A stretch of DNA of 64,000 nt from Myxococcales bacterium (GTDB lineage Bacteria; Myxococcota; Myxococcia; Myxococcales; JAKAPL01), in the NCBI GenBank assembly GCA_021783235.1, contig JAJXUD010000013.1, forward strand, positions 6,182-70,181, in the 5' to 3' direction. Under the pieces are notes generated by a model. The model saw nothing but the letters and a program-made list of their open reading frames with translations, was not told where the DNA came from and searched no databases. Of the stretch, positions 3,710 to 45,321 are shown piece after piece (position 1 is the first letter of the stretch; each line of letters begins with the position of its first letter). The position numbers and the translations under genes are program-made.

Positions 3710-5311
3710 ATGTCCGCCGCCCTCCCCGTCCCCTCCCCCGCCTCCCCCGACTATGGGGTCGACCGGCTCCCCGATCTCTACCTCGACGAGGCCCAGGTGG
3801 CCCGCTGCCGCGCCCTCGCCGGCCGCGTCGTGCAGGGGGTCTTCGACTTCATCGATCACCACACGACCGTCACCATCGAGCGGACCGTGCTGCGGCTCCT
3901 CGGCCTGTCGGGCGCGGGCCCTCGCGGCGTGCCGCTCTGCAACCTCATCGTCGACCGGATCCAGCAGGCAGGGCAGCTCGGGCGCGGCGCCGCCCACTGG
4001 TACGGACGCGCCGTCCACCGGCGCGGCGCCGCCTCGCCGCAGGAGCTCGCCGACGCCATCGCCACCGAGCTTCGCGCCGCGCCGCCGGCTGCCGCGGAGC
4101 AGAAGACCATCGACGCCGAGGTTCGCCGCGAGGCCCGGCAGGCGGTGGACGAGCTGCTCGCCCGCGTGGCCGCGCGCGAGGCGCTCAAGCGCGAGCTCGG
4201 CACCGGCCCCGCCCCGCTCAAGTACGTCATCGTGGCCACCGGCAACATCTTCGAGGACGTGGAGCAGGCGCGCGCCGCCGCCCAGGCGGGCGCCGACATC
4301 ATCGCGGTCATCCGCTCGACCGCGCAGAGCCTGCTCGACTACGTGCCCCACGGCGCCACCACCGAGGGGTACGGCGGCACCTACGCCACGCAGGAGAACT
4401 TCCGCATCATGCGCGAGGCGCTCGACGCGGAGGGGCGGCGGCTCGGCCGCTACGTCCAGCTGACGAACTACTCCTCGGGCCTCTGCATGCCAGAGATCGC
4501 CTTCGCGGCGGCCTGGGAGAAGCTCGACATGCTCCTGAACGACGCCATGTACGGCATCCTCTTCCGCGACATCAACATGAAGCGGACGATGTGCGACCAG
4601 TACTTCAGCCGCCGCATCTGCGCGCTCGCCGGCCTCGTCATCAACACGGGCGAGGACAACTACATCACCACCGCCGACGCCTACGAGGCGGCCCACACCG
4701 TCATCGGAAGCCAGCTCATCAACGAGGCCTTCGCGAAGCGGGCCGGCATGGCCGACTGGCAGCTCGGCCTCGGCCACGCCTACGAGCTCGACACCGCCCG
4801 CGAGGACACCCTGCCGCTCGAGCTCTCGCAGGCGCTCCTCGTGCGCCGCCTCTTCCCCCGCTCGCCCATCAAGTACATGCCGCCGACGAAGCACAAGCAG
4901 GGCGACATCTTCTTCAGCCACGCCTACGACGTGATGGCGGACCTCGTCGCCGCCACCACCCACCAGGGCATCCAGCTCCTCGGCATGATGACCGAGGCGC
5001 TCCATACCCCCGTGTTGATGGACCGCTACGTCGCCCTCAAGACGGCCGACTACATCCACCGCGCCGCGCGGACGTTCGGCGAGGAGTTCACGCTGCGGCG
5101 CGAGAGCCTCACCGTCCGCCGCGCCCACGAGGTGCTCGGCAAGGCCGAGAAGCTGCTCGAGGAGACCGCCGACGACGGCCTCTGGGCCGCCATCGGCAAC
5201 GCCCGCTTCGGCGACGTCGCCCGCCAGCCCGACGGCGGCAAGGGGCTCGACGGCGTCGCCGCCCGCGCCGACGGCTACTTCAACCCCTTCCTCGAGATCC
5301 TCGAAGGATAG
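3710..5311 (+). CDS. kamD: lysine 5,6-aminomutase alpha subunit (KamD family)
   Basis: ORF 3710..5311(+), 533 aa. Long blocks match my recall of Clostridium KamD: KYVIVATGNIFEDVEQARAAAQAGADIIAVIRSTAQSLLDYVPHGATTEGYGGTYATQENFRIMREALD, LCMPEIA, MLLNDAMYGILFRDINM, INTGEDNYITTADAYEAAHTV, PIKYMPPTK, DGGKGLDGV. Confidence 0.85.
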   Translation: MSAALPVPSPASPDYGVDRLPDLYLDEAQVARCRALAGRVVQGVFDFIDHHTTVTIERTVLRLLGLSGAGPRGVPLCNLIVDRIQQAGQLGRGAAHWYGRAVHRRGAASPQELADAIATELRAAPPAAAEQKTIDAEVRREARQAVDELLARVAAREALKRELGTGPAPLKYVIVATGNIFEDVEQARAAAQAGADIIAVIRSTAQSLLDYVPHGATTEGYGGTYATQENFRIMREALDAEGRRLGRYVQLTNYSSGLCMPEIAFAAAWEKLDMLLNDAMYGILFRDINMKRTMCDQYFSRRICALAGLVINTGEDNYITTADAYEAAHTVIGSQLINEAFAKRAGMADWQLGLGHAYELDTAREDTLPLELSQALLVRRLFPRSPIKYMPPTKHKQGDIFFSHAYDVMADLVAATTHQGIQLLGMMTEALHTPVLMDRYVALKTADYIHRAARTFGEEFTLRRESLTVRRAHEVLGKAEKLLEETADDGLWAAIGNARFGDVARQPDGGKGLDGVAARADGYFNPFLEILEG

Positions 5312-5423
5312 ACCGAGGAAGGAGCTCCACCTCTTCGGCCATCGCGAGCTCTCTGGCGTTCGGCGCTCCCCCCCCCCGCGCCCACGCGCAGCGCGCGGCG
5401 GCCGTCCGTGCGATGATGCGCGC

Positions 5424-6329
5424 GTGCTCGCGCTCGCCCTCGGACTGACGCTCGGCGCCTCGGCGCCGCAGATCTCCGTCGAGCTCCCCGCGCAGCCCGG
5501 GCCCTGCGGCTTCTCGGAGCTCGCGAGCGCGCTGCGGCGCCGGCTGCCGGGCGCGACGCTGCGCCCCGAGCTCCGCGGCGAGGATCGGCGCGACGTCCGG
5601 GTTCGCTACGGCGAGCGGGACGGCCGCTGGACGCTCACGATCCGCGCCGGCGACGCGCCGCCCCTGCGACGCGAGCTGCCCTCGCCCGGCGTCGACTGCG
5701 TCGCCCTCAGCGAGACGGCGGCGCTGATGCTCGAGCGCTACCTGGACGAGGTCCACTGGGGCGGGGGCGAGGCGGCGCGGCTCGCCCCGCTCGCGCCTCC
5801 GCCGGCCGTTCCCCCCACCGAGGCGATCCTCTCGGTCGGCGCCTGGGGCGGGATGGGGCCGCTCGGCTTGGCGCCCGGCGGCGAGGGCGGCCTCGCGGTC
5901 GCCCGCGGTCGCTGGCGGTTCGGGGCGGTGGGGGATCTCCTCCCGTCAAGGAGCGCGGTGGTCGCGGGGGCGCCGGGCGCGACGCTGGCGGCGCAGGCGG
6001 GGAACCTCGAGCTCGCGGGCGGCCCCGCCTGGCCGGTGGGATCCGGAGACTTCCGGCTCGAGCTCGTGCCCGGCGCGGAGCTGCTCTGGGCGAGCTCGTC
6101 GGGCGGGCGGCTCTTCCAGCATCGGCCTGGCCTCGCCGCCTCGCCCTTCGCGGGCGCGCGGGCGGGCTTCGAGCTGCCGCTCGGGGAGCGCTTCGACCTC
6201 GCGCTGCGGCTGACCGGCCGGGCGTTTTTCGCCAGAAACGGCCTGTCGGTGGAGGGGTTTGGCGCCGAGGCGCTTCCCGCCCCGTTCGACGCTGCGATCG
6301 CGCTCGCGATCGAGCGCCGCTTTTTTTGA
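5424..6329 (+). CDS. hypothetical exported protein, possible OM beta-barrel
   Basis: ORF 5424..6329(+), GTG start. Third-position GC is very high in this frame. It has a short hydrophobic N-terminus (LALALGLTLGASA), a Gly/Ala-rich alternating C-terminal half, and ends in RRFF (aromatic terminus). No family recognised. Confidence 0.5.
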   Translation: MLALALGLTLGASAPQISVELPAQPGPCGFSELASALRRRLPGATLRPELRGEDRRDVRVRYGERDGRWTLTIRAGDAPPLRRELPSPGVDCVALSETAALMLERYLDEVHWGGGEAARLAPLAPPPAVPPTEAILSVGAWGGMGPLGLAPGGEGGLAVARGRWRFGAVGDLLPSRSAVVAGAPGATLAAQAGNLELAGGPAWPVGSGDFRLELVPGAELLWASSSGGRLFQHRPGLAASPFAGARAGFELPLGERFDLALRLTGRAFFARNGLSVEGFGAEALPAPFDAAIALAIERRFF

Positions 6330-17145: not shown

Positions 17146-18804
17146 TCACTGCGCGGTCGGCTGCGGACAGATCGCGACTCCCGCCGTCGCGTCGCAGCCA
17201 GGCGAATCCCCATGACAACAGACATCGCTCGCGACCCGCGGCGCGATCTCCCACATCGGGTCGGAGGCCCGCACCTGCACGAGCATCCCGACCACGTCGA
17301 CGACCATCCCAGGCTTCGCTTGCGGCACGAGGCCGGGGACGCCGCTGCGCGTCTCGAACGAGAGCTTCCACGGCGGGTGCTGCCCGCCGTTCGACAGGTT
17401 CTGCCCGGGGAACGAGGCCGCGTACTGCCCGTAGCCCGCGAACTCGGACTGCTCGGTGCAGCCGAGGAGCGAGTCGCAGTACTCGCGGCAGAGGCAGGCG
17501 TTCTGGCAGTGGCCGTCGATGCAGGCCTCCTGGTCCAGGGCCGAGCAGTCCGAGCTGCTTTCGCAACGCCGGGCGCACTCGTTGGCGACGCAGTCCGATC
17601 CCTCGGGGCAGTGGGCGATGGCCGCGCCGATCTCGCCGCAGAAGCTGCCGCTCGTCTGGGGCAGGCAGCCAGAGGCCTTGCGGTAGGGGACCTTTCCCGT
17701 CCCCGTCAGGTCGCAGTTCAAGAAGCGGCTCGGCAGCGTGACGTCGTGCGCCACCACGAGCCCCGACTCGAGCGACTCGAGCTGGAGGTTGTCGGTGCCG
17801 GGCGCGCAGAGGTACTGATCCGCGAGGTGGTCGCCGGGCGTCCCGATGGCGCACCAGGCCGGATCGATGGCCACCGGTGGCGGGACGTCCTGGGGATGGG
17901 GGTCGGCGTATTGGGGATCCGGGTTCTTCGTCCAGGCCGGGAAGTCCATCTGCGTGTCGCCGACGAACTCCCCGAGGTTGCCCGAGAGGGCGACGAGCCG
18001 GTCGCCGACGAAGAGGTCGGGGGCGTCGTAGTTGTAGACGAAGAGGTAGGCCCAACTGCCCGGGAGGTCGTCCTTGAAGGTGTCCGGGTCGAATCCGGGC
18101 ATCGGCTTACCGCTGGTGGGGTCGTAGCTGTTGCGGTCCATCACGTAGAAGCCGTCGCTCTGGACCGCGGTCACGATGAGGTCCATCGAGTAGACCTGCG
18201 AGGGATCGCAGCCGCCGTCCGACTGCGGCGCGATGCAGCGGGTCTTCGACTGGTCGACGTTCACGTAGTTGCCCATCAGCGGCGACTTCGTGTTGTCGGA
18301 CGTGATCTGTAGATCCGAGAGAAGCGGATAGCCGTAGTGGATCGGCGGGTCGCTCACGCCGGTGGCGTAGTTGCCGAGGGCCGCGCCCGCGTCGGCCCCG
18401 CCCACGGGCCGGCTCTCCACCCAGACCACCGTGTCGCCGAACGGGTGCTGGGCCCAGAGGGTCCCGCTCGCCTTGCCATTCGTGAACTGGATCTGCGGCT
18501 CCTGATCCGGAGTCGTCGCGACCGTGTTTCCGGCCATCACCTGCCCGGGCGTGACGTAGACATAGGCCTTCCCGTTGAACGAGTTGTCGAAGTTCCCGAG
18601 CTCGTCCACCGCCTTGGCGGTCACCGAGATCTCCACCGGGTCGGTCGGGAACTGACCCACCATGCCGCTCAGATCCTCGGCGGTCACCTGGAAGCTGTTC
18701 AGCCCGTTCTGGAGCGGGGTATGGGCGTCGCAGCCCGCCGCAAAGACGAACCCGAGCGCAGCCGCGACGGACGGGACGATTCGCCTATTGCGTGGATTCG
18801 ACAA
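17146..18804 (-). CDS. lipoprotein with OB-fold-like central module and Cys-rich C-terminus
   Basis: ORF 17146..18804(-), 552 aa. The TTG start is preceded by AGGAGGA at 8 nt. The lipobox is GFVFAAG-C. A central block reads LIVTAVQSDGFYVMD...AYLFVYNYDAPDLFVGDRLVALSGNLGEFVGDTQMDF. Confidence 0.65.
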   Translation of the reverse strand: MSNPRNRRIVPSVAAALGFVFAAGCDAHTPLQNGLNSFQVTAEDLSGMVGQFPTDPVEISVTAKAVDELGNFDNSFNGKAYVYVTPGQVMAGNTVATTPDQEPQIQFTNGKASGTLWAQHPFGDTVVWVESRPVGGADAGAALGNYATGVSDPPIHYGYPLLSDLQITSDNTKSPLMGNYVNVDQSKTRCIAPQSDGGCDPSQVYSMDLIVTAVQSDGFYVMDRNSYDPTSGKPMPGFDPDTFKDDLPGSWAYLFVYNYDAPDLFVGDRLVALSGNLGEFVGDTQMDFPAWTKNPDPQYADPHPQDVPPPVAIDPAWCAIGTPGDHLADQYLCAPGTDNLQLESLESGLVVAHDVTLPSRFLNCDLTGTGKVPYRKASGCLPQTSGSFCGEIGAAIAHCPEGSDCVANECARRCESSSDCSALDQEACIDGHCQNACLCREYCDSLLGCTEQSEFAGYGQYAASFPGQNLSNGGQHPPWKLSFETRSGVPGLVPQAKPGMVVDVVGMLVQVRASDPMWEIAPRVASDVCCHGDSPGCDATAGVAICPQPTAQ

Positions 18805-21625
18805 TGCGTCCGTCCTCCTGGGCCGTCACCACCGAGATGTTCGTCGGGTTCTTGCAGAACTCGATCACCTGCGGCGTCACGTGGCCGCAGTTGGGATCGG
18901 GGTCCTGCTGGGATGCGAGCGCCTGGCGGCACTCGCAGGAGCCCTCCCAGACACCGGTGGGCGCCCCGGCGAGCCGCTCCGGATGATCCGCGATCGCCTG
19001 GTCCACCGACTCGTGGAGATCCGAGGCCATCTGGTTCAGGTAGCTCTCGAAGGTCGTCGCGGCGTTGCAGTAGGTCACGGCGGCGGGGTCGATCTGCACC
19101 TGGTCGGTGCCGGGCACCTTGAGGCGCGCGCAGGCGGGGTCGCCCGCGAGGATCCGGTCGCAGTGGCAGTATTTGTCGCGCAGGTACTCGATGAGGCTGT
19201 CGCGCATCGAGACGCCGGTGAAGGTCTTGCTCGTGTTGAACTGGAGGACCCGGTAGCCGCTCCCGCCCGCCGCGATGTAGTCGTTGACGCAGCCCTTGTA
19301 CTGAGCCGAGAGGTCCAGGTCCTCGCCGTTCACCTTGATGTTGTGCGCGCTCCAGGCGTAGCAGCGCCCCTGCACGCACTCGCAGCCGGTGTTCGGGCCG
19401 GCGGACGGCGTCTCGTCCCCAGAGCAGGTCTGCGCGTACCAGGAGGCGCTCGGGCTCCCCGGGTACTGGTTCGCGGCGTTGACGCAGTCGCTCGTCTGCT
19501 GGCAGCTCGGCACGCACGGCTCGGGCCGATCGCCGTTCGGCAGGATCTGGTCACAGGAGGGGGCGGTGTTCCGAATCACGCGGCCGCAGTCCTGCACGAA
19601 GGAGAGCCCGGCCACCTGGGCCTGCGCCTGGCAGCCGCGCGACCCCGAGACGTCGGTGACGAAGTCGAGCATGTCCTGGATCTCGTGGCCCGAGAGGTAC
19701 TGGACCACGAGCGTGTTCTCGAACGGGAAGACGTTGAACATGGCCTCGAGGTAGATGGGGCCGTGGTAGATGTCGTCGCGGATGCCGAGCGTGTTCGTGA
19801 GGCCGAACTCGGCGTTGACCGACTGGTAGTCGCGCATCGACTCGCTGATCAGGTTTCCGAGCTGCGAGTCGCCGCCGATGCTTCCCGTCTGCGAGGTGTC
19901 GGCCGTCTGGTTGTTCTCCTCGCCGGTCCCCTTCGAGAAGCGCAGGATGTCGTTCGGGGTGTACGCGAAGATGCGGGGCAGCTCGAGCGAGGTATTGAGC
20001 CCCTCCGTGTAGGGCAGGAGCAGCTCGAGCGTCTCCGGATCCTCCTCTTGCAGGCACTGGTCCCGGCCTGCGGCGAGCGTCTCGACGTAGGTCTGCCAAG
20101 CGTTCGGATCGTATGGGTTGCGGTCCGGGCGCGGGTTCAGACACCAGAGCGCGTCGATGGGCAGCGGCAGGTAGTCGTGCGCGACGATCTCGGCGCCAAC
20201 CGCCTGCCGCAGGGTCCATTGCTGATCGGTCAGCCCCGCCGGCTTGTCCTTGGGCGGCATCCGAACGACGAGGTCGAGCCGCCCGAGGTACTTCGCGAAG
20301 GCCCCGCTGTGCTGGATGAGGACCTGCCGCGGGTTCTGGTCCCAGGTGTCGGTGTTCGGCACGGCGCCGAAGACGTCGCTGCCGTCGCGGTTGCGGTGGT
20401 AGCTGCCGTCGGGCCAGAGGCCGGCGCTGTAGCAGCCGGTCTTCGAGGCGTCGGCGGCGTCGGTGTAGAGGCCGCTGCCGCTCGGGCAGCTGCCACTCGG
20501 CGTTTCGTCGATGCGAAGCGCGGGCTGCCGCTGCACGACGAGCTCGGTCATCGACGCGGTGGGGTCGAGCACCACGTGGATGTGGCCGCCCATGATGAAG
20601 TCGATGTTCTGAACGGGCGGGATGAAGACGTGAACACGCCGGTTCGGGTTGATCTTCGAGACATCCACCGTCGCGTCGGTGGGGCACGAGCCGTCGGCGT
20701 TCAGCTTCTCGCCGGGGTTCAGCTGGCAGGAGTTGTCGTCCTCGCTCGGGTTGCGGGGCGGCAGCACGTCCATGAGCATCCAGGGGGCGTCGGCCCGCTC
20801 GAGGAACGGCTTCGCGCTCGCGTAGGGGTAGACGTCGTCGTACCCCGTCACCAGCGTCTGGTCCTGGGTGAGCCCCTGGTGCGAGACGATCCCGATGAGG
20901 TCGGTCATGGGCGCCAGGAGCGCGACGTACTGGCGGACGGTCTCGTTCTGCTCGAGCGCGATGGCGTCGAGCGCGTTGCCGCCCTGGGTGATCGTGGAGA
21001 GGGCGTCGATGTTGCCGAGGCCGATGATGCCGACCCGCAGCCCGTCTTTGTTGACGATCGTGAACGGGTGCACGATCTCCCCGAGCATCGTGTGGGTCGG
21101 ATCGCGGAAGTCCGCGAAGTCGTAGTTCGCGGCGAGCAGCGGGTAGTTCACCCACATCTTCGCCTGCTCGGCGAAGTTCAGGGCGCCGTGGTCGTACTCG
21201 TGGTTGCCGACCGCCGAGGCGTCGGGGTGCATGAGCGAGATGAAGCGGAACTCAGGCTCCCCGTTGTTCTCGTTGAAGAGCGGCGCCCCCTCGAAGCAGT
21301 CGCCCGAGTCGAGCAGTAGGGAGCGCGAGGTGCTCTGCAACTGCGACAGGTAGAGCGCTCGGATGCGGGCCGCGCCGCCGAAGGGGTAGGCCTCGGGGAA
21401 GAGGCCGAGCCCCCGGTCCGTCGTGTTGACGGCGATGTCGTAGGGCAAGAGCCGCGAGTGGATGTCGGCCGTGTGGAAGATCGTGAGCCGGATGTCCTGC
21501 CCCGCGAGATCCGGCTGGTCGGCGCTCACGGTGCAGCTGGCCAGCGCGGCGGCGGACGCCAGGGCAGCCCAAAATGACCGCGGGCGGCGGGCCTGGAGTG
21601 TCGGGGGACAGCGGGAACGGCGCAT
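18785..21625 (-). CDS. lipoprotein metallophosphoesterase / 5'-nucleotidase family (UshA-like), enlarged
   Basis: ORF 18785..21625(-), 946 aa, with lipobox AALAS-C. Calcineurin-type motifs are FHTADIHSRL, DSGDCFEG and GNHEYD. The 5'-nucleotidase C-domain-like block is QLGNLISESMRD...GPIYLEAMFNVFPFENTLVV. There are large insertions and a Cys-rich tail. Confidence 0.75.
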   Translation of the reverse strand: MRRSRCPPTLQARRPRSFWAALASAAALASCTVSADQPDLAGQDIRLTIFHTADIHSRLLPYDIAVNTTDRGLGLFPEAYPFGGAARIRALYLSQLQSTSRSLLLDSGDCFEGAPLFNENNGEPEFRFISLMHPDASAVGNHEYDHGALNFAEQAKMWVNYPLLAANYDFADFRDPTHTMLGEIVHPFTIVNKDGLRVGIIGLGNIDALSTITQGGNALDAIALEQNETVRQYVALLAPMTDLIGIVSHQGLTQDQTLVTGYDDVYPYASAKPFLERADAPWMLMDVLPPRNPSEDDNSCQLNPGEKLNADGSCPTDATVDVSKINPNRRVHVFIPPVQNIDFIMGGHIHVVLDPTASMTELVVQRQPALRIDETPSGSCPSGSGLYTDAADASKTGCYSAGLWPDGSYHRNRDGSDVFGAVPNTDTWDQNPRQVLIQHSGAFAKYLGRLDLVVRMPPKDKPAGLTDQQWTLRQAVGAEIVAHDYLPLPIDALWCLNPRPDRNPYDPNAWQTYVETLAAGRDQCLQEEDPETLELLLPYTEGLNTSLELPRIFAYTPNDILRFSKGTGEENNQTADTSQTGSIGGDSQLGNLISESMRDYQSVNAEFGLTNTLGIRDDIYHGPIYLEAMFNVFPFENTLVVQYLSGHEIQDMLDFVTDVSGSRGCQAQAQVAGLSFVQDCGRVIRNTAPSCDQILPNGDRPEPCVPSCQQTSDCVNAANQYPGSPSASWYAQTCSGDETPSAGPNTGCECVQGRCYAWSAHNIKVNGEDLDLSAQYKGCVNDYIAAGGSGYRVLQFNTSKTFTGVSMRDSLIEYLRDKYCHCDRILAGDPACARLKVPGTDQVQIDPAAVTYCNAATTFESYLNQMASDLHESVDQAIADHPERLAGAPTGVWEGSCECRQALASQQDPDPNCGHVTPQVIEFCKNPTNISVVTAQEDGRIVESTQ

Positions 21626-21783: not shown

Positions 21784-21812
21784 TTGACGGCCGAGCGTCG
21801 GATCATTAGCAT
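21784..21812 (+). promoter_or_regulatory. candidate sigma70-type promoter for the 21857 operon
   Basis: TTGACG-N17-TAGCAT, ending 45 nt upstream of ATG 21857. Confidence 0.3.
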
Positions 21813-21856: not shown

Positions 21857-22408
21857 ATGATCCGCTCGACCCGATTCTTGCTCGCCGCGCTCGGCGCCAC
21901 GCTCGCCCTCCTCCCGCTCTCCGCGCGGGCCATCGTCATGCAGGGACTCTCGCTCGAGGAACTGACCCGGCGCGCGGACCTCGTCGTCCACGGCGAGGTC
22001 CTCGCACAGTCGGTCCGCAAGGAGGGCAAGAACCTCTGGACGACCACCCGGCTGCGGGTCATCGACACGCTCAAGGGCTCGGCCCCCGGCGCGACGCTCG
22101 GCTTCGACCAACTCGGCGGCAGCCTGGACGGCCGGACCGTTCGGATCGCGGGCGACGCCAGCTTCGCCCCCGGCGAGGAGGTCGTCGTCTTCCTCGCGCG
22201 GACGCCCGAGGGGCTCGTGCTCTACGGCTTCAGCCAGGGCAAGTTCGTCGTGGCCTTCGACCCGGTGGCAAACGCGCCGCTCGTGACGCGCGACCTCTCG
22301 GAGGCGACGCTCGTCACCCCGCGCGGCCAGGCCCCGGCCCGGCAATGGGCGGCCCCCACCCTGGACGACTTCCGCGCCGAGATCCGCGCCTTCGCGAACG
22401 CCCGCTAG
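21857..22408 (+). CDS. small secreted protein, unknown family
   Basis: ORF 21857..22408(+), 183 aa. The signal peptide is LLAALGATLALLPLSARA. The rest is mostly beta-strand pattern: ADLVVHGEVLAQSV...TTTRLRVIDTLKG...GEEVVVFLAR...GKFVV. Confidence 0.6.
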   Translation: MIRSTRFLLAALGATLALLPLSARAIVMQGLSLEELTRRADLVVHGEVLAQSVRKEGKNLWTTTRLRVIDTLKGSAPGATLGFDQLGGSLDGRTVRIAGDASFAPGEEVVVFLARTPEGLVLYGFSQGKFVVAFDPVANAPLVTRDLSEATLVTPRGQAPARQWAAPTLDDFRAEIRAFANAR

Positions 22409-22429
22409 CCTTCCTCCCCGAGAGTTCCC

Positions 22430-24511
22430 ATGACCCGCCGCCTCGCCCTCCTCTCCCTCCCCTTCGCCGCCGCCTTCGCCGCCGGGCAAGCCCACGCCAC
22501 CGCCTGCTCCGGAGCGACGAACCTCTGCACCATCTGCGGCGACAACGTCACCACCTGCACCGTCCAGCAGGCGCCGTGGCACTACGACCTCGCCTCCTGG
22601 CAGTACCAGCAGCAGGTCTACACGGCCTTCGGAGTCTGGGGCACCGACAAGAAGGCGCCGGGCTATTCGCCGGTCGCCTGCTCGAGCCTCGGGACCGTCC
22701 AGGACAGCGTCGATTCGAACCCGGGCGCCGCGTACGCGGGCGACGGCAAGAACACCATCGGCGTCAACGTGACGGCGCAAGGGCAGCAGTACTGCTACCT
22801 GAACCCGGCCTCCTGCCAGGGCGGGGCCACCCAGGGCATCGGCGTCGGCGTCGCCGTCCCCTCCATCGTGGGAGGCCAGGTCCAGGAGTGCGACGTCTAC
22901 TTCAACTCGGTCGACTACCAGTTCGCCGATCTCATCGGCAACCCGTCCTCGAACAACGGTAGCAACATCGACGTCGAGACCGTGGCGAACCAGGAGGTCG
23001 GCCACTGCTTCGGCCTCGACCACTACCTCGACGACCAGAAGGCCGTGATGTACCCGTACGTCTCGCCGGGCGACACGCGCCCGACTCTCGAGCCGCACGA
23101 CCTCAACAACATCTGCCAGCTCTACCCGGTCCCGGGCGCCCTCGGCGGCCCCTGCACGGGCGGCTGCGGCAACGGCCTCAGCTGCGTCACCGACCCCGGC
23201 AACCAGTCGCAGTATTGCTCGCAGAGCTGTAGCGCCCCGGGCGCCACCGGCTGCCCGACCGGCTACCGCTGCGCGGCGACCACGAGCCCCTCGGGCAACT
23301 ACTGCATCGCCGGCTCGTCGGCGGCAGGTGCGGCGCTCGGCACGCCCTGCACCGCGGACACGCAGTGCGGCGGCGCCACGTCGGTCTTCTGCCTCCAGCA
23401 GAGCTACCCCACGGACGGCGGCCCGCCCCAGAACACCGGCTTCTACGGCGGCTACTGCTCCTCCAGCTGCAACGCTCCGCTCGACGGCGGCGTCGGGGTG
23501 AACGGCTGCCCAACGGGGAGCCTCTGCGAGCCGACCAACGCGCAGAACACGAACCCCGCCCCAAACAGCTTCTGCCTCGAGGGCTGCGCCGGTTTCTTCC
23601 CAACGGCCTGCCAGCGCTCGGACAGCTCGACGAACCCCTACCAGTGCGAGCCTTTGAACCAGACCCAGGACTCACAGGGGAACGTCCTCTACGGCGATTT
23701 CGTCTGCCTGCCCGCCTGCCAGTCGGATACGGACTGCAACCAGGGCGGACAGCCGTACGTCTGCGACACGACGACCCACTCGTGCGTCATCACCTGCGCG
23801 GGTGATACGAACCCGCAGAACACGAGCCAGAACCTCTGCGTGGCGAGCGGCAGCTGCCCGAACCCAAGCGCCGCCTGCGGCTCGCCGAGCGGCCAGGTGG
23901 GCGCCGCCTGCGTTCAGGACAACGACTGCCCCGTCGGCGGCGGCTGCATGCTGGCCGCCTACGGCTACCCGGGCGGCTACTGCACCGTATTCAACTGCGG
24001 CCCGGCGCCAAGCCAGTGCGGCTCGAACGGCCACTGCCAGATCCTCGACGCGCAGACCAACTTTGGATACTGCGTCGCGAACTGCCAGACGAACGCCGAC
24101 TGCCGCGCGGGCTACCTCTGCACGCCCGCCAGCAGCGGGAGCGCGAGCTACTGCGCCCCCGCGCCCCCGGCGGACGGCGGCACGACGCCGGGCGGCTCGA
24201 CGACCTCTGGAGGCGGTAGCTCCACCTCCACCTCCGGTTCGGGCTCGGGATCTGGGTCTGGCTCGGGTTCCGGCTCGGGTTCCAACTCGAGCTCGAGCTC
24301 GGGTTCGGGCTCTGGCTCGGGTTCCGGCTCGTCGGGTTCCTCTGGCTCGGGGTCGGGCGGCACGAGCAGCGGCCCCACCCCCACGGGACCCACGCCGAAG
24401 CCGCTCGCGAACAGTGGCTGCGGCTGTACCAGCGGCGACCCCGCCGAGGGCATCCTCTGGCTCGGCTGGCTCCTCGGCCTGGGACTGCGCCGCTCGCGCC
24501 GCCGAAGCTGA
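22430..24511 (+). CDS. matrixin/metzincin-like domain protein with QExxHxxGxxH motif, Cys-rich repeats, Ser/Gly linker and MYXO-CTERM tail
   Basis: ORF 22430..24511(+), 693 aa, with a signal peptide. The M10-like core is ECDVYFNS...[26 protein letters not shown]...LNNICQLYP. About 330 aa of Cys-rich modules follow, then a (GS)n linker. The C-terminus is [31 protein letters not shown]. Confidence 0.75.
24235..24357 (+). repeat. imperfect GGY/TCB tandem repeat encoding a Ser/Gly linker
   Basis: ggttcgggctcgggatctgggtctggctcgggttccggctcggg... encodes [37 protein letters not shown]. It lies just before the MYXO-CTERM tail. Confidence 0.8.
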
Positions 24512-24512
24512 C

Positions 24513-24536
24513 GGCGTCTTCAGCGCGTTGAACGCC
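24513..24536. terminator. weak hairpin between convergent genes
   Basis: GGCGTCTTCA-gcgcgt-TGAACGCC (imperfect) sits between the stop at 24511(+) and the hemD 3' end, which it overlaps. Confidence 0.3.
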
Positions 24537-25389
24537 TTCGCCGGGGCCGAGACGATCTCGGACGCGACGAAGCTCGTGCCTCGCGCGCGCCGCTCGGCTC
24601 GTCCGGCTCGTGCGGCGGCCCCGCGAGGCTCAGGAGCAGCGCCTCGACCCACGCCTCGAGCATCGGCTGCGCCGCGAGCCAGGGCTTGCCCAGCTCGAGC
24701 CGCTCACAGGCCTCCGCGGCCCCCTTCCCGAGGCAGACGAGCCTCGCCTGCCGAAGCGCGGAAGGCCCCTCGGGCCCAAGCAGCTCCAGAACGCCCTCCA
24801 CCGTTCGCCCCGAGCCGAAGAGCACGGCGTCGACCGCTCCCGACGCGAGCGCCCGCCGCGCCGGGGCGGGATCGACGCCGCCCGGGACAGACATCCGGTA
24901 GGCCGCCACCGCCGCCACCTCCAGCGCCCCCGCCTCCCGAAGCGCCGGGGCGAATTCCTCGCTGGCCCGCTCGGCCCGCGGCCAGAGGACGCGCCGCCCG
25001 CGGAGCTCCGGCGCGAGGGCCGCCACGAGCCCGAGGGCGTCGGGCCGCACGGGGACGATTGCCGGGGGCAGCCCCTCCGCCTCGAGGGCCCGCGCCGTCG
25101 CTCCGCCCACCGCAGCCACCCGCAGCCGCCCGAGCGAGATCCCTGCGAGCCGGGCGCGCAGGACCAGCGGGGCCACGGCGTTCTGGCTCGTGACCGTGAG
25201 AAAGTCGAATTCCGCGGCGCGGCGCAGAGCCGCGTCCAGCGGCCCGAAGTCCGCGGGCGGGCCCGGCTCGAGCCCGGGTAGACGAAGCGTCTCGGCACCG
25301 AGTGCCTCGAGCCGCTCCTCGAGCTCCCGGGCCTTCGGGGCCGCGCGGGTGACGAGGACCCGCCTCCCCTCGAGCGGCCGAGCGCCCAT
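24520..25389 (-). CDS. hemD: uroporphyrinogen-III synthase
   Basis: ORF 24520..25389(-), 289 aa. It begins RVLVTRAAPKARELEERLEALGAE and contains LTVTSQNAV and AVGGATARALEA. It abuts the hemC stop with 0 nt between. The last ~35 aa are a low-complexity tail. Confidence 0.8.
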   Translation of the reverse strand: MGARPLEGRRVLVTRAAPKARELEERLEALGAETLRLPGLEPGPPADFGPLDAALRRAAEFDFLTVTSQNAVAPLVLRARLAGISLGRLRVAAVGGATARALEAEGLPPAIVPVRPDALGLVAALAPELRGRRVLWPRAERASEEFAPALREAGALEVAAVAAYRMSVPGGVDPAPARRALASGAVDAVLFGSGRTVEGVLELLGPEGPSALRQARLVCLGKGAAEACERLELGKPWLAAQPMLEAWVEALLLSLAGPPHEPDEPSGAREARASSRPRSSRPRRRRSTR

Positions 25390-26343
25390 TCAGCCCGCCG
25401 GCGGCGAGCCCGTAGGGGCAGCGAGGAACCGGCCGCCCTCCGTCTCGAGGAGCCGCTCGGCCACCTCGCGGCCGAGCCGCTCGGCGCCGCCGGCGGGGCC
25501 CTCGCGCTCGACGCGGAAGAGGCGCGCGGTCTCGGGATCGCCCACCACGCCGACGAGCCGCAGCCGATCGCCGCGCAGCGTCGCGTGGCCGCCGAGCGGC
25601 ACGTGGCAACCGGCGCCCAGCCTGGCGAGGAGAGCCCGCTCCGCCGCGGCCTCCCGCTCGGCGCGCGCGTCGCCGAGCGGTGCGAGGAGCCGAGCGAGCC
25701 GCTCGTCGCCCGCGCGCCGCTCGAGGCCGAGGATCCCCTGGCCGACCGCGGGCACGAAGCCCTCGGCGTCGAGCGGCTCGGTCACCTTCTCCTCGAGGCC
25801 GAGCCGCCGCAGGCCGGCGAGCGCGAGCAGGACGCCGTCGAGGAGCGGCTCGCCGTGGGGCGCGGGGCCGAGCGCCTTCGCGAGCCGCGTCTGGACGTTG
25901 CCGCGGACCGGCACCACCTCGAGATCCGGACGCCGCGCCCGCAGCTGCGCGGCCCGCCGCAGGGAGGAGGTGCCGACGCGCGCGCCACGCGGCAACTCGG
26001 CGACGGTTCGCCCGGTTCGGCCGACGAGGGCGTCCCGCGGATCCTCCCGCGGCGGCGGCGAGGCGAGAGCCAGCCCCTCGGGCAGCTCCGCCGGTAGATC
26101 CTTCAAGCTGTGGACGGCGAGGTCGACCTCGCCACGTAGCAACGCGTCCTCGATCTCGCGGACGAAGAGCCCCTTGCCGCCGACCTGCGCGAGCGGCGCC
26201 TCGAGGAAGCGGTCGCCGCGGGTCTCCATCCGGACGAGCTCGACCGCGAGGCCGGGGTGGTGCGCGCAGAGGAGCGCGGCCACGTGCTCCGCCTGCCAGA
26301 GCGCCAGCGCGCTGCGCCGAGTGCCGATGCGGAGGGATGACAT
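25390..26343 (-). CDS. hemC: hydroxymethylbilane synthase (porphobilinogen deaminase)
   Basis: ORF 25390..26343(-), 317 aa. Blocks are LRIGTRRSALALWQAEHV, TRGD, GGKGLFVREIE, AVHSLKDLP and the cofactor Cys in LGAGCHVPLG. Confidence 0.9.
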   Translation of the reverse strand: MSSLRIGTRRSALALWQAEHVAALLCAHHPGLAVELVRMETRGDRFLEAPLAQVGGKGLFVREIEDALLRGEVDLAVHSLKDLPAELPEGLALASPPPREDPRDALVGRTGRTVAELPRGARVGTSSLRRAAQLRARRPDLEVVPVRGNVQTRLAKALGPAPHGEPLLDGVLLALAGLRRLGLEEKVTEPLDAEGFVPAVGQGILGLERRAGDERLARLLAPLGDARAEREAAAERALLARLGAGCHVPLGGHATLRGDRLRLVGVVGDPETARLFRVEREGPAGGAERLGREVAERLLETEGGRFLAAPTGSPPAG

Positions 26344-26346
26344 GGG

Positions 26347-27759
26347 TCAGGGTTCTCGCTCTCGTGGGTCCGCCGCCCCAACCCTCCCCTGCTCCGCCGG
26401 GGAGGGAGCCGCCTCCCGCCCTTCTTCCCCCGGCACCACCGGGAGAGGGACAGGGTGGGGGGACACCGACTCCGTTTCCTCCCCGAGCCCGAAGAGTCGC
26501 GCCGTCGCGTCGGCGAGCCCGCCCTCGGCGCCGAGTTCGGCGGCGCGGCGCAGCCGCGTGGTCGGCTCGTGGAGGAGCTTGTTGACGATGGCCCGGGCCA
26601 TCGCCTGGACGCTCTCCCGCTGCGCGTCGTCGAGCGCGGCGCCGAGGTGCTGGAGCGTGCGGCGGGCCTCTGCCTGGGCGATTTCGTCGGCGAAGCGACG
26701 CAGCTCTCCGAGCACCGGCGCCGCGGCGCGGCCGCGTAGGACACGGGCGAGCTCGCGCACCTCGACCTCGACGATCCGCTCCGCCCGCGTCGCCTCCTGG
26801 GCCCGAGCCTCGCTGTTCTGGGCCACGACCTCGCCGATGTCGTCCACGTCCTTGACGTAGACGTTCGGCAGCCTCGCGACCTCGGGATCCACCGAGCGCG
26901 GCACGGCGAGGTCGACGAGGAAGAGCGGTCGGAAGCGGCGGGCCTTGACGGCCTTGCCGACGAGCGGGCGGCCGATCAAGGGCTCGGGGGCAGCGACAGC
27001 CGAGACGACGATGTCGACCTCGGCGAGGAGGACGGGTAGCTCCGAGAGCTCGTGGGCCGTCGGCGAGACACCGCTCGTCGAGAGCTCCTCGCGCAGCTCC
27101 TCGGCATGGGCGAGGGTCCGGTTCGCCACCGCGATTCGGCGGACGCCGTGCGAGGCGAGGTGGCGGGCCGCCAGCGTCGCCATCTCGCCCGCGCCAACGA
27201 GCAGCACCGACTTGCCCTCGAGGGAGGCGAAGATCTTGCGGGCGAGCTCGACCGCCGCGAAGCTCATCGAGACCGCGGCGCGCCCGACGTCCGTTTCGGT
27301 CCGCACCCGCTTGGCCACGGCGAAGGCGCGGCCCACCGTCCGGTGCAGGCAGTCGCCCGCGGCCCCCGCTTGGGCGGCCGCCTGGAAGGCCTCCTTGAGC
27401 TGCCCGAGGATCTGCGGCTCGCCCACCACCATCGAGTCGAGGCTCGAGGCGACCCGGAAGAGATGGCGGACCGCCTCCTCGCCGCGGCGCTCGTAGAGGT
27501 GGCTCTCGACGACCTCGCCGCGGAGCAGGAAGCTGCGAAGCGAGGAGGCGGCCCGGTCGGCCGGCGCGCCGGTGCCGTAGAGCTCGACCCGGTTGCAGGT
27601 GGACAGCACCATCCCCTCGTTGATCCCGGGCAGCGACTTGAGCGAGCGAATGGCTGCCTGGAGATCTTCGCCGATCCGCGAGAGCCGCTCGCGCACGTCG
27701 ACCGGGGCGGTCCGGTGCGAGACGCCGAGCAGGACCAGGTTGTCGATCGGGTCGGCCAT
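26347..27759 (-). CDS. hemA: glutamyl-tRNA reductase
   Basis: ORF 26347..27759(-), 470 aa. It has LLGVSHRTAPVDVRE, the catalytic Cys in VLSTCNRVELYG, and the NADPH site LLVGAGEMA. The Pro/Glu-rich C-terminal extension is about 45 aa. Confidence 0.9.
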   Translation of the reverse strand: MADPIDNLVLLGVSHRTAPVDVRERLSRIGEDLQAAIRSLKSLPGINEGMVLSTCNRVELYGTGAPADRAASSLRSFLLRGEVVESHLYERRGEEAVRHLFRVASSLDSMVVGEPQILGQLKEAFQAAAQAGAAGDCLHRTVGRAFAVAKRVRTETDVGRAAVSMSFAAVELARKIFASLEGKSVLLVGAGEMATLAARHLASHGVRRIAVANRTLAHAEELREELSTSGVSPTAHELSELPVLLAEVDIVVSAVAAPEPLIGRPLVGKAVKARRFRPLFLVDLAVPRSVDPEVARLPNVYVKDVDDIGEVVAQNSEARAQEATRAERIVEVEVRELARVLRGRAAAPVLGELRRFADEIAQAEARRTLQHLGAALDDAQRESVQAMARAIVNKLLHEPTTRLRRAAELGAEGGLADATARLFGLGEETESVSPHPVPLPVVPGEEGREAAPSPAEQGRVGAADPREREP

Positions 27760-27762
27760 GGC

Positions 27763-28635
27763 CTAGCGGAACGTCCCCCCGTGCCGGTCCACGGGGCAGA
27801 GCGAGAGGCCGACGAAGCTGACCATCGCAAGCGCGAAGCCGAGCATCGTGAGGAGCGCCGCGCGGCGCCCCCGCCAGCCGGCGAGGGTCCGGGCCTGGAT
27901 GAGCCCCCCGAAGACGAGCCAGGTGACGAGCGCGAGGACCTCGCGCGGCTCCCAGCTCCAGGCGCTGCCCCAGGCCCCGTGGGCGACGAGCGAGCCCGAG
28001 ACGATGGTGAAGGAGAGGAGCGCGAATCCCCAGACGACGAGCCTCCGGTTGAGCCCGTCGAGGAGCTCGAGGCTCGGAAGCTTGGACCAGAGCCCAGCGA
28101 CCCGCGCGTGGCCCTTCATCTCGCGCTCCTGTACGAGGTAGCAGGCGCCGACGCCGCAGGCGATGGCGAAGAGCGCGTTGCCGAGGAAGGCGGCCACGAC
28201 ATGGATCGGCAGGAGCCCGGCGTGAAGGGCCGGCGGCAGCGGCGCGTCGGAGGTCGGGATGACGAGCGCGGGAAAGGCGATGGCGAGGACGAGCGGCGTC
28301 ACGAAGGCGCCGAGGATCGGCAGCCCGAGCCGCAGGTCCATCGCGAGGAAGCTCGCGCCCATGAGCCAGGCGAGGAGCGAGAGCCCCTCCCGGACGTTCG
28401 TCGCGAGGACCGGCCCTCGCAGCACCGCGAGCGCGCCGACCGCGAGCCCGTGGAGCACGAGGCCCGCCGCGAGGCCGGCCGTGCCAAGCCGCGCGGCGGC
28501 GGCCCGGCCCCCGCCGCGCGGGCTCCGCGGTCCTGCGCCGGGGACCTCGGCGACGAGGTGCCAAAGGTAGGCCACCGCGGCCGCCGAGTAGGCGAGCGCG
28601 GCGAGGCCCAGGCAGGCGTGGCTCAAGAGGGCCAT
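27763..28635 (-). CDS. cytochrome c assembly protein family (CcsA/HemX-like) membrane protein
   Basis: ORF 27763..28635(-), 290 aa with about 8 TM helices. The Trp-rich motif is HGAWGSAWSWEPREVLALVTW (WGxxWxW-D/E-P type). It ends 3 nt upstream of hemA. Confidence 0.75.
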   Translation of the reverse strand: MALLSHACLGLAALAYSAAAVAYLWHLVAEVPGAGPRSPRGGGRAAAARLGTAGLAAGLVLHGLAVGALAVLRGPVLATNVREGLSLLAWLMGASFLAMDLRLGLPILGAFVTPLVLAIAFPALVIPTSDAPLPPALHAGLLPIHVVAAFLGNALFAIACGVGACYLVQEREMKGHARVAGLWSKLPSLELLDGLNRRLVVWGFALLSFTIVSGSLVAHGAWGSAWSWEPREVLALVTWLVFGGLIQARTLAGWRGRRAALLTMLGFALAMVSFVGLSLCPVDRHGGTFR

Positions 28636-41894: not shown

Positions 41895-44800
41895 CTAGTA
41901 CCCTCCGCTCCCTTCCTCGTCCCTGGCCGGAGCCGCCTTCTTCGGCGGCTCGGGCGCGGGCGCCGGCTCCCCGGAGGAGGTCGGACTCGTCGACACCGTC
42001 TCGAGCGGCGCGACAGCGAAGAACTCGCTGCCCTGGTACGGCAGTGAGTGGATGTCACCATACGCGCCGGGGCGGTACTTGTTCTCCTGATCCTCCGCCT
42101 TGAGCACCCAGTCGTCGTAGACGTTCAGCTCCGAGCTCTTCTGAAGCGCCTTCTCGATCGCCTCGATGCCCTTGTCCTCGAGCGGGAGCGCGCGATTCTC
42201 TAGCTCGGCCCGGTACTGGTCGAGCAGATCCGGCGACAGCCCCTTCGGGTCCGGGGAATCGGTCAGGCTCTTCGCGAAGTCGAGATAGGCGAAGCCGATC
42301 CGCGTCAACGCCGCGATTCCGTAATCGCCGTCCCCGATGGCGAGCACCTGGGTGTAGGCCTTCTCGACCTCCGGGAGGGTCTTCATCTTCTCCTTGAGTT
42401 GCCCCTTGAGCTTGTTCGGGTTGTCGAACCGAATGGCCGTGTATCGGCTCCAGAGCGGATCGACCTCATGGAAGCGGAGCTGAGCATAGGCGGCGAGATT
42501 CCCGTCGTCCTTCTGCTCGGCCGGCGAGAGGCGCGAATAGGACTTGAGCAACTCCTCGCCGATCTTGACTGCCGAGCGGTCGTCGCCCGACCTGCGGAGC
42601 GCCTCCATCTGCTTGTACTTGGCGTAGTAGATCTTGCCCGGCGTCAGCTCACGCCCGTAAGTCTTCATGTAGACGTCGAAGGCCTTGGCCGCGCTCTTCC
42701 AGTCTTTCTGCTTCTCGTCGATGAGGCCGATGTTGAACTGGATCTCCGGTGCGTCCTTGCGGTCCTTGAACTCTTTTAGGTATTGGCCGTAGAGCGCGAT
42801 GGCCTTGCCGAAGTTGCCGAGCCCTTCGTTCCAGAGCGCCGCATTGAAGAGATCGTCGGCCGACTTGGGATCCTTCGGGTAGAGTTTGACGAACTGCTCG
42901 TAGTCGGCGGCGGCCTTCTCGAAGTCGGCCTCGCGCTCATAGTCGTGAGCGAGCGCCTCCAAGGTCTTCGAGGCGAGGTCCGACTTCGGGTAGTCGCGCA
43001 GGAGCTTCTCGCCCTCGGGAACCGCGAGGTCGAGCTTGTCCCCGTTCTCGTAGCCGACCATCGAGTTGAAAAGAGCCTTGGGAGCGAACTCGCTCTTGGG
43101 GAAGAACTTCACGAACTCGTCGAAGAGCTTCCCGGCCCGGCCATAGTCCTTCTGCTCGAAGATCTGCTGCGCGAGCGTGAACTGGGTGCGCTGGATGATG
43201 CTCATGACGCGTTGGGCGAACGGAGAGCCTGCCTTCGCGAGCTGATGATTCGCGTAGAACTTCTTTGCGAGATCGTTGAGCTCCGCCACTTCCCCCTTCG
43301 CGGAGAGGGCATCCATGATGAGGTCGGCCGCCTTCTGGGCGAGTTCGTTCGTGGGCCACTTGGTGATGACCTCGCCCAGCCGCTTTCCTGCCTCCACGAA
43401 GTGGAAGTGGTCGTAATAGAGGAAGGCCGCCTTGTACCGGACCGTCACCTCGTCGTTGCCACCCGGGAAGAGCTTCACGTAGCGATCCGAGGCGTCGGCG
43501 AGCTTCTGCTCCCAGTGCGGAATCGGCTCCTCCTGAGCGTTCTTGCCGGCCTTCGTGATCATGCCGTGCTTCTGCACGACACCCTTCTTCTGCTTCTCGT
43601 CGATCTTCTCGTTGTCGGAGAGCTCGCGCTGCTGCATGCGGCCCTGCGCGATCGCCACGAGCTTCTCGTAGCAGAGGATGGCGTCGTAGGCCGCCGACTT
43701 GGCGTAGTAGCCCTTCGGGTCCTTCTTCGAGACGAGCTCGTACTGCTCGGCGGCCTTGTCCCATTCCTGCAGGGCGTAGAGAATCTCGGCGTAATAGAAG
43801 CGCAGGTTGGACGCGTTCTCGGATTCCGGAAAGTTGTCGAGGTACTCCTTGTAAATGTCGCGAGCGAGCCGGTAAGTGGCGACGCTCTTCGTCTTCTGCG
43901 CCTCCTGATGGTAGTCCGTCACGAGCTCGCGCATCGAGCCCTCGGTCAGGTCGTACGCCGAGGCCAGTGCCGACTTGTTGCGCGAGTTGGCCTGGGCCCA
44001 GTCGCTCTTCGGTCCGTAGACCTGGACGAGCTTCTTGAGCTCGACGCGGACCTGATCACGCATCCGCTGCCCCTCGTAAGCCTTGACGATGTTCGCCTGG
44101 TAGGCCGGATCCTCCGGGTCCGTCGGATCCTCGCTGATGATCATCCGGTATGTCCGGATGGCCGGATCCCACTTTCCAGCATCGAAATAGACATTCCCGA
44201 GCCGGGCCATCAGGTGGTGGGTCTTCTTCCGGGAGGCGTGCTGCGCGTAGTAGTCGCGCGCCTGGTCGACGGCATTGAGCTGCGACCAGGAGAGGATCAT
44301 GTCCCCGAGCGCCTCGTTTTTGAGCTGGATCTTGTCCTTGCGCTCGCCCCGCGGCCCCTTGCGGGCGGCGTTCTCCTGGTAGGAGACCACCTTCTCGAAC
44401 TTGTGGATGGCGTCCTCGTAAGCGCCCGAGTTGAAGTCGCACCAGGCGAGCTTGTAGAGAGCGAAGGCGTAGATCTGTGGGACATTGCAGGCGAGCGCCT
44501 TCTCGTAGGCCTTGCGGGCTCGCTCGAGGTCGTTCGAGTTGAAGAAGTGCTCACCCATCTGCACGTATGCGTCCGGCACGAACTTGCTGTCGGGGTACTG
44601 CCGGATGAGGTCCCAGTAACGCGCGATGGCGTCCTTCTTCTTACCCACCTCGTAGAGGTTGTAGGCCAGGTTGAAGAGGACCTCGTCCTTGCGTGGATAG
44701 GTCGGGTAGTCGTCCAGGATCTTCTGGTAGAGGTTGATCGCCTCCTGCCGGTAGAGATCCGACTGGCGCGTGCTCAGGGTTGGCTCTCGCGCCCCCTTGG

Positions 44801-45320: not shown

Positions 45321-45321
45321 T

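Follow-up and report, generated by a model that had tools for sequence, protein, structure and literature searches.

A matrixin-like protease of Myxococcota with glutamine at its first metal ligand, and a genetically linked, cysteine-free partner of predicted TIMP/NTR-like fold

Serralysin inhibitors (AprI/Inh/SmaPI) are small beta-barrel proteins that are encoded beside a metzincin, and whose N-terminal segment enters the active-site cleft and contacts the zinc. In Tannerella forsythia, the OB-fold protein PotA is encoded upstream of the bacterial matrix metalloproteinase (MMP) karilysin, inhibits it potently and protects the cell surface (PMC9890683); a small OB-fold inhibitor upstream of a bacterial MMP is thus an established design. 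Listeria secretes the metzincin Mtz, which cleaves and releases Tim, a lipoprotein resembling the tissue inhibitors of metalloproteinases (TIMPs), and for bacterial TIMP-like proteins the authors of that study found no precedent on record (PMC8235301). TIMPs appear as an animal family in the description given by PMC4860685, how the MMP/TIMP system arose, and which way MMP genes moved between animals and microbes, is actively debated (PMC12587646), and a 2025 study of horizontal MMP transfer mentions neither TIMPs nor Myxococcota. A natural and active metalloproteinase with the sequence QEXXHXXGXXH, VMP3 of Volvox carteri, prefers Cu(II) (Heitzer & Hallmann 2002, as summarized in PMC7717551). 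Here we describe a gene pair in a 64,000-nucleotide stretch of a Myxococcales genome (contig JAJXUD010000013.1; hereafter the window), consisting of two plus-strand open reading frames (ORFs) that encode a secreted protein of 183 aa (21857-22408; hereafter the partner) and a matrixin-like protease of 693 aa (22430-24511) with Gln in place of the first zinc-ligand His.

The protease is a bacterial M10-like matrixin with a Gln ligand that has so far been characterized in the algal enzyme VMP3 only. The more interesting result is the partner family, which matches no Pfam or NCBIfam model, is free of Cys, is predicted to adopt a TIMP/NTR-like fold and is tied to matrixins across phyla. We see about an even chance that the partner is a cognate latency factor or inhibitor binding the catalytic domain and that the Gln enzyme keeps a functional, altered metal site. 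The precedents that a literature search returned for the partner were limited to the Listeria pair and to the potempins, which are unrelated; Mtz-Tim was the sole record in this search of a bacterial metzincin gene beside a protein of predicted TIMP-like fold. The initial annotation of the window, made from the sequence alone, had located both reading frames and their 21-nt spacing correctly. The features of the locus are as follows:

21784-21812, plus strand: sigma-70-like promoter candidate TTGACG-17-TAGCAT upstream of the operon (consensus match only)
21857-22408, plus strand: secreted partner, 183 aa, Cys-free, predicted NTR/TIMP-like OB-fold
21857-21931, plus strand: predicted Sec signal peptide of the partner, aa 1-25, cleavage between ARA and IVMQ (read by eye)
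22409-22429, plus strand: 21-nt spacer between partner and protease genes, operon
22430-24511, plus strand: matrixin-like metallopeptidase, 693 aa, with Cys-rich stalk, Gly/Ser linker and MYXO-CTERM-like tail
22430-22498, plus strand: predicted Sec-type signal peptide of the protease, aa 1-23, cleavage between AHA and TAC (read by eye from the sequence)
22562-23137, plus strand: matrixin-like catalytic domain, about aa 45-236 (Pfam and PDB sequence matches)
22991-23023, plus strand: metal-binding motif, aa 188-198, with Q188 in place of the first zinc-ligand His
23042-23056, plus strand: Met-turn AVMYP, aa 205-209, aligning with ALMYP of karilysin
23138-24157, plus strand: Cys-rich stalk, aa 237-576, 40 Cys, at positions largely conserved across the Myxococcota family with about 50 Cys
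24158-24409, plus strand: low-complexity Gly/Ser/Thr linker, aa 577-660
24410-24508, plus strand: MYXO-CTERM-like sorting signal comprising SGCGC, a hydrophobic helix and RRSRRRS

A protein search returned 41 homologues of the partner, and the AlphaFold2 (AF2) model computed from a homologue alignment was confident (predicted local distance difference test score, pLDDT, 88.4; predicted template modelling score, pTM, 0.81). When this model was compared with the PDB using Foldseek, ranks 1-22 were all occupied by NTR/TIMP-fold proteins, namely agrin NtA, TIMP-1, TIMP-2 and TIMP-3, and the PCOLCE NTR, meteorin NTR and complement C345C domains. The best match was agrin NtA (E = 1.8e-4), generic OB folds appeared only below rank 22, and potempins were absent from the top 50 matches. 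The TIMP/OB-like nature of the partner, which had been the most speculative suggestion of the initial annotation, consequently emerged as its best supported one, the model matching NTR/TIMP folds almost exclusively. A fold search of viral structures with the partner yielded generic OB folds, none of them at E <= 0.001, the family profile matched no PDB chain at E <= 10, and phage and plasmid records searched by tblastn with the partner gave no match and showed no link to the phage-borne tim gene of Listeria.

Further points of agreement with TIMPs concern the beginning of the mature protein. The predicted mature N-terminus of the partner precedes D41, in the DLVVHG strand, by 15 residues, a spacing as in TIMPs, and the conserved Asp occupies mature position 16, as does D16 of TIMP-1, in 47 of 76 non-redundant homologues, where this is the modal position (cleavage sites of the homologues were taken from a crude AxA predictor). 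Aligned by hhalign with N-TIMP-1 and with TIMP-1/2/3, the partner family gave one match in one register, which places D41 on TIMP-1 D16 and RLRVIDTLKG on YEIKMTKMYKG (LKG on YKG). Partners from Myxococcaceae and Archangiaceae (loci L003, L023, L030, L032 and others) begin with TT[LQ][IV]PHT, Pro-His-Thr being near-invariant at mature positions 5-7, and those of the clade of Gln-bearing enzymes to which the window belongs (Q clade) begin with [ILM]V[ML]E; H-type and Q-type enzymes thus have partners with different N-terminal signatures.

In all 12 contexts examined from the partner side (the window, L001, L002, L003, L005-L008, L089, L090, L097 and L098), the partner gene adjoins a matrixin-like gene. 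The gap in the homologous pairs is mostly -4 to +1 nt, compared with 21 nt in the window, and the C-terminal architectures of the paired proteases vary, including a CarboxypepD_reg domain, a type IX secretion system (T9SS) tail, a double matrixin and a Cys-rich stalk. From the protease side, GTDB species genomes were scanned with an alignment of six sequences, a 31-sequence family alignment being too divergent as a query, and 80 matrixin loci were obtained. In 43 of these 80 loci the hidden Markov model (HMM) of the partner identified a same-strand gene just upstream, among them nearly all Myxococcota loci of the 'GHC' type with upstream DNA as well as loci in metagenome-assembled genomes labelled KSB1, Thermodesulfobacteriota and 'Deltaproteobacteria'; in the same scan, the 'GHI' matrixins of actinobacteria and the 'GHL' matrixins of Bradymonadia had no upstream partner recognized by this HMM. 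The partner is kept in six of six Q-clade loci. The linkage of partner and matrixin spans Myxococcota, Bacteroidota, Gemmatimonadota, KSB1 and other lineages, and it extends beyond the Gln variant, since a canonical HExxH is found in most of the matrixins that have a partner.

Three loci encode natural fusions, in which signal peptide, partner and matrixin are joined in a single ORF (L083:1852-5343 from Bacteroidota, L085:2146-3291 from Gemmatimonadota, and L072:2215-3870), and in which the partner domain directly follows the signal peptide, in the position of a prodomain. These fusions provide a Rosetta-stone argument for physical cooperation between partner and matrixin. Co-occurrence of the two genes, proposed at the outset as a check, thus extends far beyond the Q clade. 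Of the idea of a cognate inhibitor, the conserved pairing stands; inhibition itself is inferred, and the pairing is shared by Gln and canonical enzymes.

The L083 fusion additionally contains an IPT-like domain, repeats and a T9SS tail, and in the motifs of two fusions, HELGHWLNLRD (L083) and HEFGHFLCLKD (L085), another residue stands in place of the Gly, and Asp is found at ligand 3. At one locus (L089:1678-4067) the matrixin gene comes first and the partner gene follows 45 nt downstream, the reverse of the usual order; the linker of the L089 matrixin is (GE)n, compared with (GS)n in the window protease, and its Arg-rich tail contains one Cys.

Tight linkage and gene fusion are equally compatible with an enzyme and its substrate. 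In Listeria, Mtz cleaves the TIMP-like lipoprotein Tim and the associated phenotypes depend on this cleavage (PMC8235301), a precedent for a partner that the matrixin processes, be it as a substrate or as an effector precursor, and against an inhibitor. We nevertheless consider a substrate role of the partner unlikely, given that the partner is no lipoprotein and lacks an N-terminal tether that could be cut, the fold following immediately on its predicted mature N-terminus, that it sits at the prodomain position in the fusions, and that the search of phage records found no phage-borne protein similar to it in sequence.

Turning to the protease, the matrixin core and Met-turn recognized by eye in the initial annotation were borne out by profile searches. 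Matrixin (PF00413) was the only Pfam family matched at E <= 1, with 34.1 bits against a gathering cut-off of 24, the match covering aa 176-232 and only positions 102-158 of the 159 in the profile. The best PDB match was karilysin, whose HEIGH His aligned with Q188, and a profile of the 31-sequence family returned 84 PDB matches, all of them MMPs or karilysin, the beta1/helix-A region being weakly aligned. ECDVYFNS is found at aa 153-160, the segment bearing the metal-binding motif at aa 185-198 and AVMYPY at aa 205-210, M207 of the Met-turn being invariant in the 31-sequence alignment. Relative to the extended HExxHxxGxxH/D motif of metzincins, the Glu, the second His, the Gly and the third His are present and the first His is Gln, encoded by CAG at 22991-22993, as had been noticed initially.

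CAG is one transversion away from CAC, and a sequencing error had been one of three explanations offered at first. That a sequencing or assembly error conceals a true His is refuted, its probability being practically nil: the protease gene reads CAG with 0 nt differences over its 2082 nt in three independent assemblies (ENA ERZ27233572, Logan SRR13170410 and SRR13178630), and five orthologues that are 44-77% identical (P0001; P0002, which equals L001/L010; P0003, at locus L002; L009; and L090) likewise carry Gln, in L002 through the synonymous codon CAA. Together with the window, six of six distinct sequences read ETVANQE[VT]GHCFGL[DN]H, the outcome of the orthologue alignment that had been suggested as a check. 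As the assemblies are identical and the orthologues keep Gln, one of them via CAA, the Gln is real and maintained. The identical 183-aa partner occurs on at least 24 public contigs.

Conservation within the Q clade is concentrated at this site. The longest invariant blocks in the first 420 residues of the six sequences are ETVANQE and GHCFGL, followed by AVMYP, and the invariant fraction, 0.65 in aa 176-212, falls to 0.39 over the remainder of the domain and to 0.29 over the stalk; no variation is seen at the catalytic Glu or at either of the two His that are left. An exhaustive phmmer search found 474 relatives at E <= 0.001. Among the zinc motifs of the best 150 of these and five earlier matches, ligand 1 is His in 168, Gln in 6 and Arg in 3, with no recognizable motif in seven sequences. 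The relatives include a coherent Myxococcota family of about 35 cluster representatives, characterized by a length of about 550-600 aa, about 50 Cys, a MYXO-CTERM tail and a Cys immediately following the second His. A neighbour-joining tree, built without bootstrap support, shows the Q clade of the window as monophyletic and nested among NHE relatives; in this tree, P0050, P0145 and P0140 carry Gln on separate branches outside this clade, and the three Arg variants, which also have Asp at ligand 3, group with H/D variants. The motifs of P0050, P0140 and P0145 have Gln at ligand 1 with the remaining motif residues intact (ALQEVAHCMGLGH, SQQETAHCFGMHH and TAQESGHCLGLGH).

In the mechanism that we propose, the bicistronic operon would supply two exported proteins that work together. 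The protease would leave the cytoplasm by the Sec pathway and probably be lipid-anchored on the cell surface via its MYXO-CTERM-type signal, with the disulfide-rich stalk and the Gly/Ser linker holding it away from the membrane. With no change to the catalytic Glu, the second and third His, the Gly or the Met-turn, the Q188 site is most likely still a working metal centre; it may consist of the Gln side-chain oxygen, two His and a water, retain residual activity and differ in the strength with which it binds metal or in the metal that it selects, as VMP3 does in preferring Cu. The partner would serve as an inhibitor or latency factor by binding its cognate matrixin at the catalytic domain, either in periplasmic transit or on the surface, possibly by inserting its free N-terminal segment into the active-site cleft in a TIMP-like manner.

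A number of results weigh against this mechanism. For the partner, the Foldseek template modelling (TM) scores of about 0.38-0.54, with target-normalised TM of 0.5-0.54 against N-domains, indicate a likeness at the level of the fold only. The hhalign match to TIMPs had P values of 0.002-0.003 (0.0024 against TIMP-1/2/3) and a probability of 11-12%, and homology of partner and TIMPs, unproven at this level, is not claimed here. The Pfam models of TIMP (PF00965), NTR (PF01759) and NtA (PF03146) gave no match at threshold; the commonest sub-threshold family, a point in favour of the predicted fold, was agrin NtA in 3 of 41 members (best E 0.05). There is no Cys in the mature partner and none is conserved in the family, which leaves it without Cys1 and without every TIMP disulfide, and the conservation of the N-terminal octet (0.73-0.75 vs 0.65-0.73 overall) is not exceptional. 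The distance from start to motif has a median of 165 aa in matrixins with a partner (n=38) and 160 aa in those without (n=17; p=0.11); partner-less matrixins thus do not have longer N-terminal regions, and the partner does not simply substitute for a missing prodomain. Finally, the H-type locus L026 also lacks a partner.

For the metal site, the AF2 model of aa 1-300 from the six-sequence alignment had a pLDDT of only 35.7, too low for a structural reading of the Gln site even though its order of secondary structure elements would be compatible with a metzincin fold, and an inspection of 10 neighbouring ORFs revealed none related to copper. As a rule, zinc binding is weakened when His is replaced by Gln. 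Moreover, the same family of about 50 Cys tolerates variants whose ligands 1 and 3 are Arg and Asp, respectively (REIGHCLGL[AG]D in P0052, P0064, P0082 and L094:2387-4285), which would hardly be able to bind metal, and catalysis may therefore be dispensable in this family. These variants speak for an explanation of lower probability, namely that the Gln protein is a dead pseudo-protease displayed on the surface, with the cleft kept for recognition or adhesion and the partner serving as a folding or export chaperone or as a ligand. The loss of a canonical zinc ligand would fit such a protein, as would the large Cys-rich stalk with its surface anchor, both suited to binding. The ratio of non-synonymous to synonymous substitution rates (dN/dS, NG86) is only moderately low, at 0.2-0.8 for catalytic domain, stalk and partner, values that are uninformative because of GC codon bias and divergence. 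However, the active-site helix and Met-turn form the most conserved segment of the Q clade, including the Glu and both His, the Gln has been kept through a synonymous codon change, and Volvox possesses an active QEXXHXXGXXH enzyme. The partner, retained throughout the Q clade, is also absent from the one R/D locus that was recovered (L094), where the hemC-hemD-matrixin synteny is kept and the matrixin directly follows hemD; since L026 lacks a partner as well, this absence is only a hint. With the motif as the most conserved block, the partner retained and VMP3 active, we lean towards a metal site that is maintained and functional, if altered, and regard a dead pseudo-protease as less likely. 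Of the three explanations first offered for the Gln, the error is eliminated and an altered but functional ligand set is favoured over loss of function. Just downstream of the L094 matrixin lies an ORF for a T2SS-E ATPase of the type II secretion system (T2SS; 3967-6108).

His residues of the protease in aa 24-240 are limited to H51, H192, H198 and H223; with none between H51 and H192, the His-rich structural-zinc loop of MMPs is absent. Neither a prodomain nor a cysteine switch was found, as there is no PRCG motif and the signal peptide ends at aa 23, with beta1 (PWHYDL) starting from aa 49. The cleavage site, AxA followed by T, is kept in the orthologues. The possibility that the protease is a lipoprotein, raised by its ATAC N-terminus, was rejected, because in P0003 the Cys is far from the signal peptide and the AxA-T site is conserved. 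Between signal peptide and catalytic domain, the Q clade has a specific N-terminal extension, ACSGATNLC(x2)C(x6)C (window 22502-22558, aa 25-43). Its first Cys pair is present in six of six members and its second pair is missing in P0003 and L090, and these Cys therefore probably form disulfides and not a metal site. C193 (window 23006-23008), the residue that follows the second zinc-binding His (HExxHC), does not vary across the 31-sequence family; along with C229 of helix C and the pair C84/C154, this Cys points to two family-specific disulfides bracing the active-site helix.

Of the 52 Cys in the protease, 40 lie in aa 242-575, and BLAST detected no internal repeats in the stalk. The Cys-rich modules, Gly/Ser linker and GCGC-hydrophobic-Arg tail described initially are all present. 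The MYXO-CTERM model TIGR03901 scored 15.8 bits, below its cut-off of 20, and the tail agrees by eye with the published tripartite design of a Cys motif (often GCGC), a hydrophobic helix and a C-terminal Arg cluster; the same tail occurs in about 30 family representatives. Published MYXO-CTERM signals are cleaved by a CPBP-type myxosortase, and surface display requires the T2SS.

Upstream of the operon, the sigma-70-like promoter candidate is the single site found, compared with 0.1 expected from shuffled sequences. Downstream, the convergent hemD gene ends 8 nt past the 693-aa ORF, and the pair adjoins hemD-hemC-hemA and a cytochrome-c-assembly gene (24520-28635, minus strand). This synteny is kept at Q-type and H-type Myxococcota loci (L001, L002, L003 and L094) for no obvious functional reason. 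On the other side, a divergent gene (18785-21625, minus strand) encodes a 946-aa UshA/5'-nucleotidase-like protein (Metallophos and 5_nucleotid_C domains) with a signal peptide and long Cys-containing insertions, which is also the neighbour in L091. Further away, GC content falls to 0.62 in 42001-46000, compared with 0.65-0.77 elsewhere in the window; this region includes a 1152-aa TPR-repeat protein (41895-45353, minus strand).

A wider proposal, which we put forward tentatively and regard as less than probable, is that a widespread bacterial family of Cys-free TIMP/NTR-fold proteins acts as cognate inhibitors or latency factors of matrixins, encoded adjacently or fused N-terminally, and shares ancestry with animal TIMP/NTR modules or converged closely on the same N-terminal wedge, and that one Myxococcota clade switched its first ligand to Gln, using another metal (e.g. 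Cu) or a weakened Zn site. If confirmed, the family would offer a prokaryotic counterpart for studying how TIMP-like inhibitors arise, a disulfide-free TIMP-like scaffold that can be produced in bacteria, and a means of annotating the function of many hypothetical proteins. A natural experiment on metal-ligand plasticity in metzincins is provided by the Gln variant.

Among described enzymes, karilysin and the vertebrate MMPs (MEROPS M10A, PF00413) share with the window protease the xExxHxxGxxH helix, the Met-turn 'MYP', helix C, secretion and a multidomain organization. The window protease differs from them in its Gln for the first His, a Tyr instead of Ser after the third His and a Cys after the second His, in the absence of the structural-zinc loop, the cysteine-switch prodomain and a hemopexin domain, and in its stalk of about 40 Cys and MYXO-CTERM-like anchor. 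VMP3 is gametolysin-like (M11) and algal, whereas the window protease matches Pfam Matrixin (M10) alone, and the Gln therefore most likely arose independently in the two. They share the QExxHxxGxxH variant, which VMP3 carries as an extracellular, matrix-associated enzyme of metzincin type.

On the side of the partner, serralysin inhibitors have an eight-stranded barrel, unlike that of the partner, and were not among the Foldseek matches. The potempin PotA resembles the partner as a small OB-fold protein encoded immediately upstream of an MMP-type gene, with which it is co-transcribed, as the short gaps suggest for the partner, but it is a lipoprotein of 98 residues that inhibits via surface loops in a 'bilobal' mechanism (PMC9890683), whereas the partner has about 158 mature residues, a cleavage site between ARA and I, and no lipobox Cys. 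Listeria Tim is a phage-associated lipoprotein of a Gram-positive host, encoded downstream of Mtz and cleaved by it, whereas the partner is encoded upstream and is not a lipoprotein. Compared with the TIMP/NTR modules (MEROPS I35; agrin NtA, PCOLCE NTR and complement C345C), whose fold the partner is predicted to match, it is bacterial and has no C-terminal TIMP domain, and it has no Cys where TIMP N-domains have three disulfides and the zinc-chelating Cys1. TIMPs and the partner are alike in the register D-L-V-[VI] ... [LY]KG and in a free N-terminus 15 residues before strand A, the Myxococcaceae start TT[LQ][IV]PHT standing where TIMP-1 has CTCVPPH, and the partner, like TIMPs, is tied to matrixins, in this case genetically.

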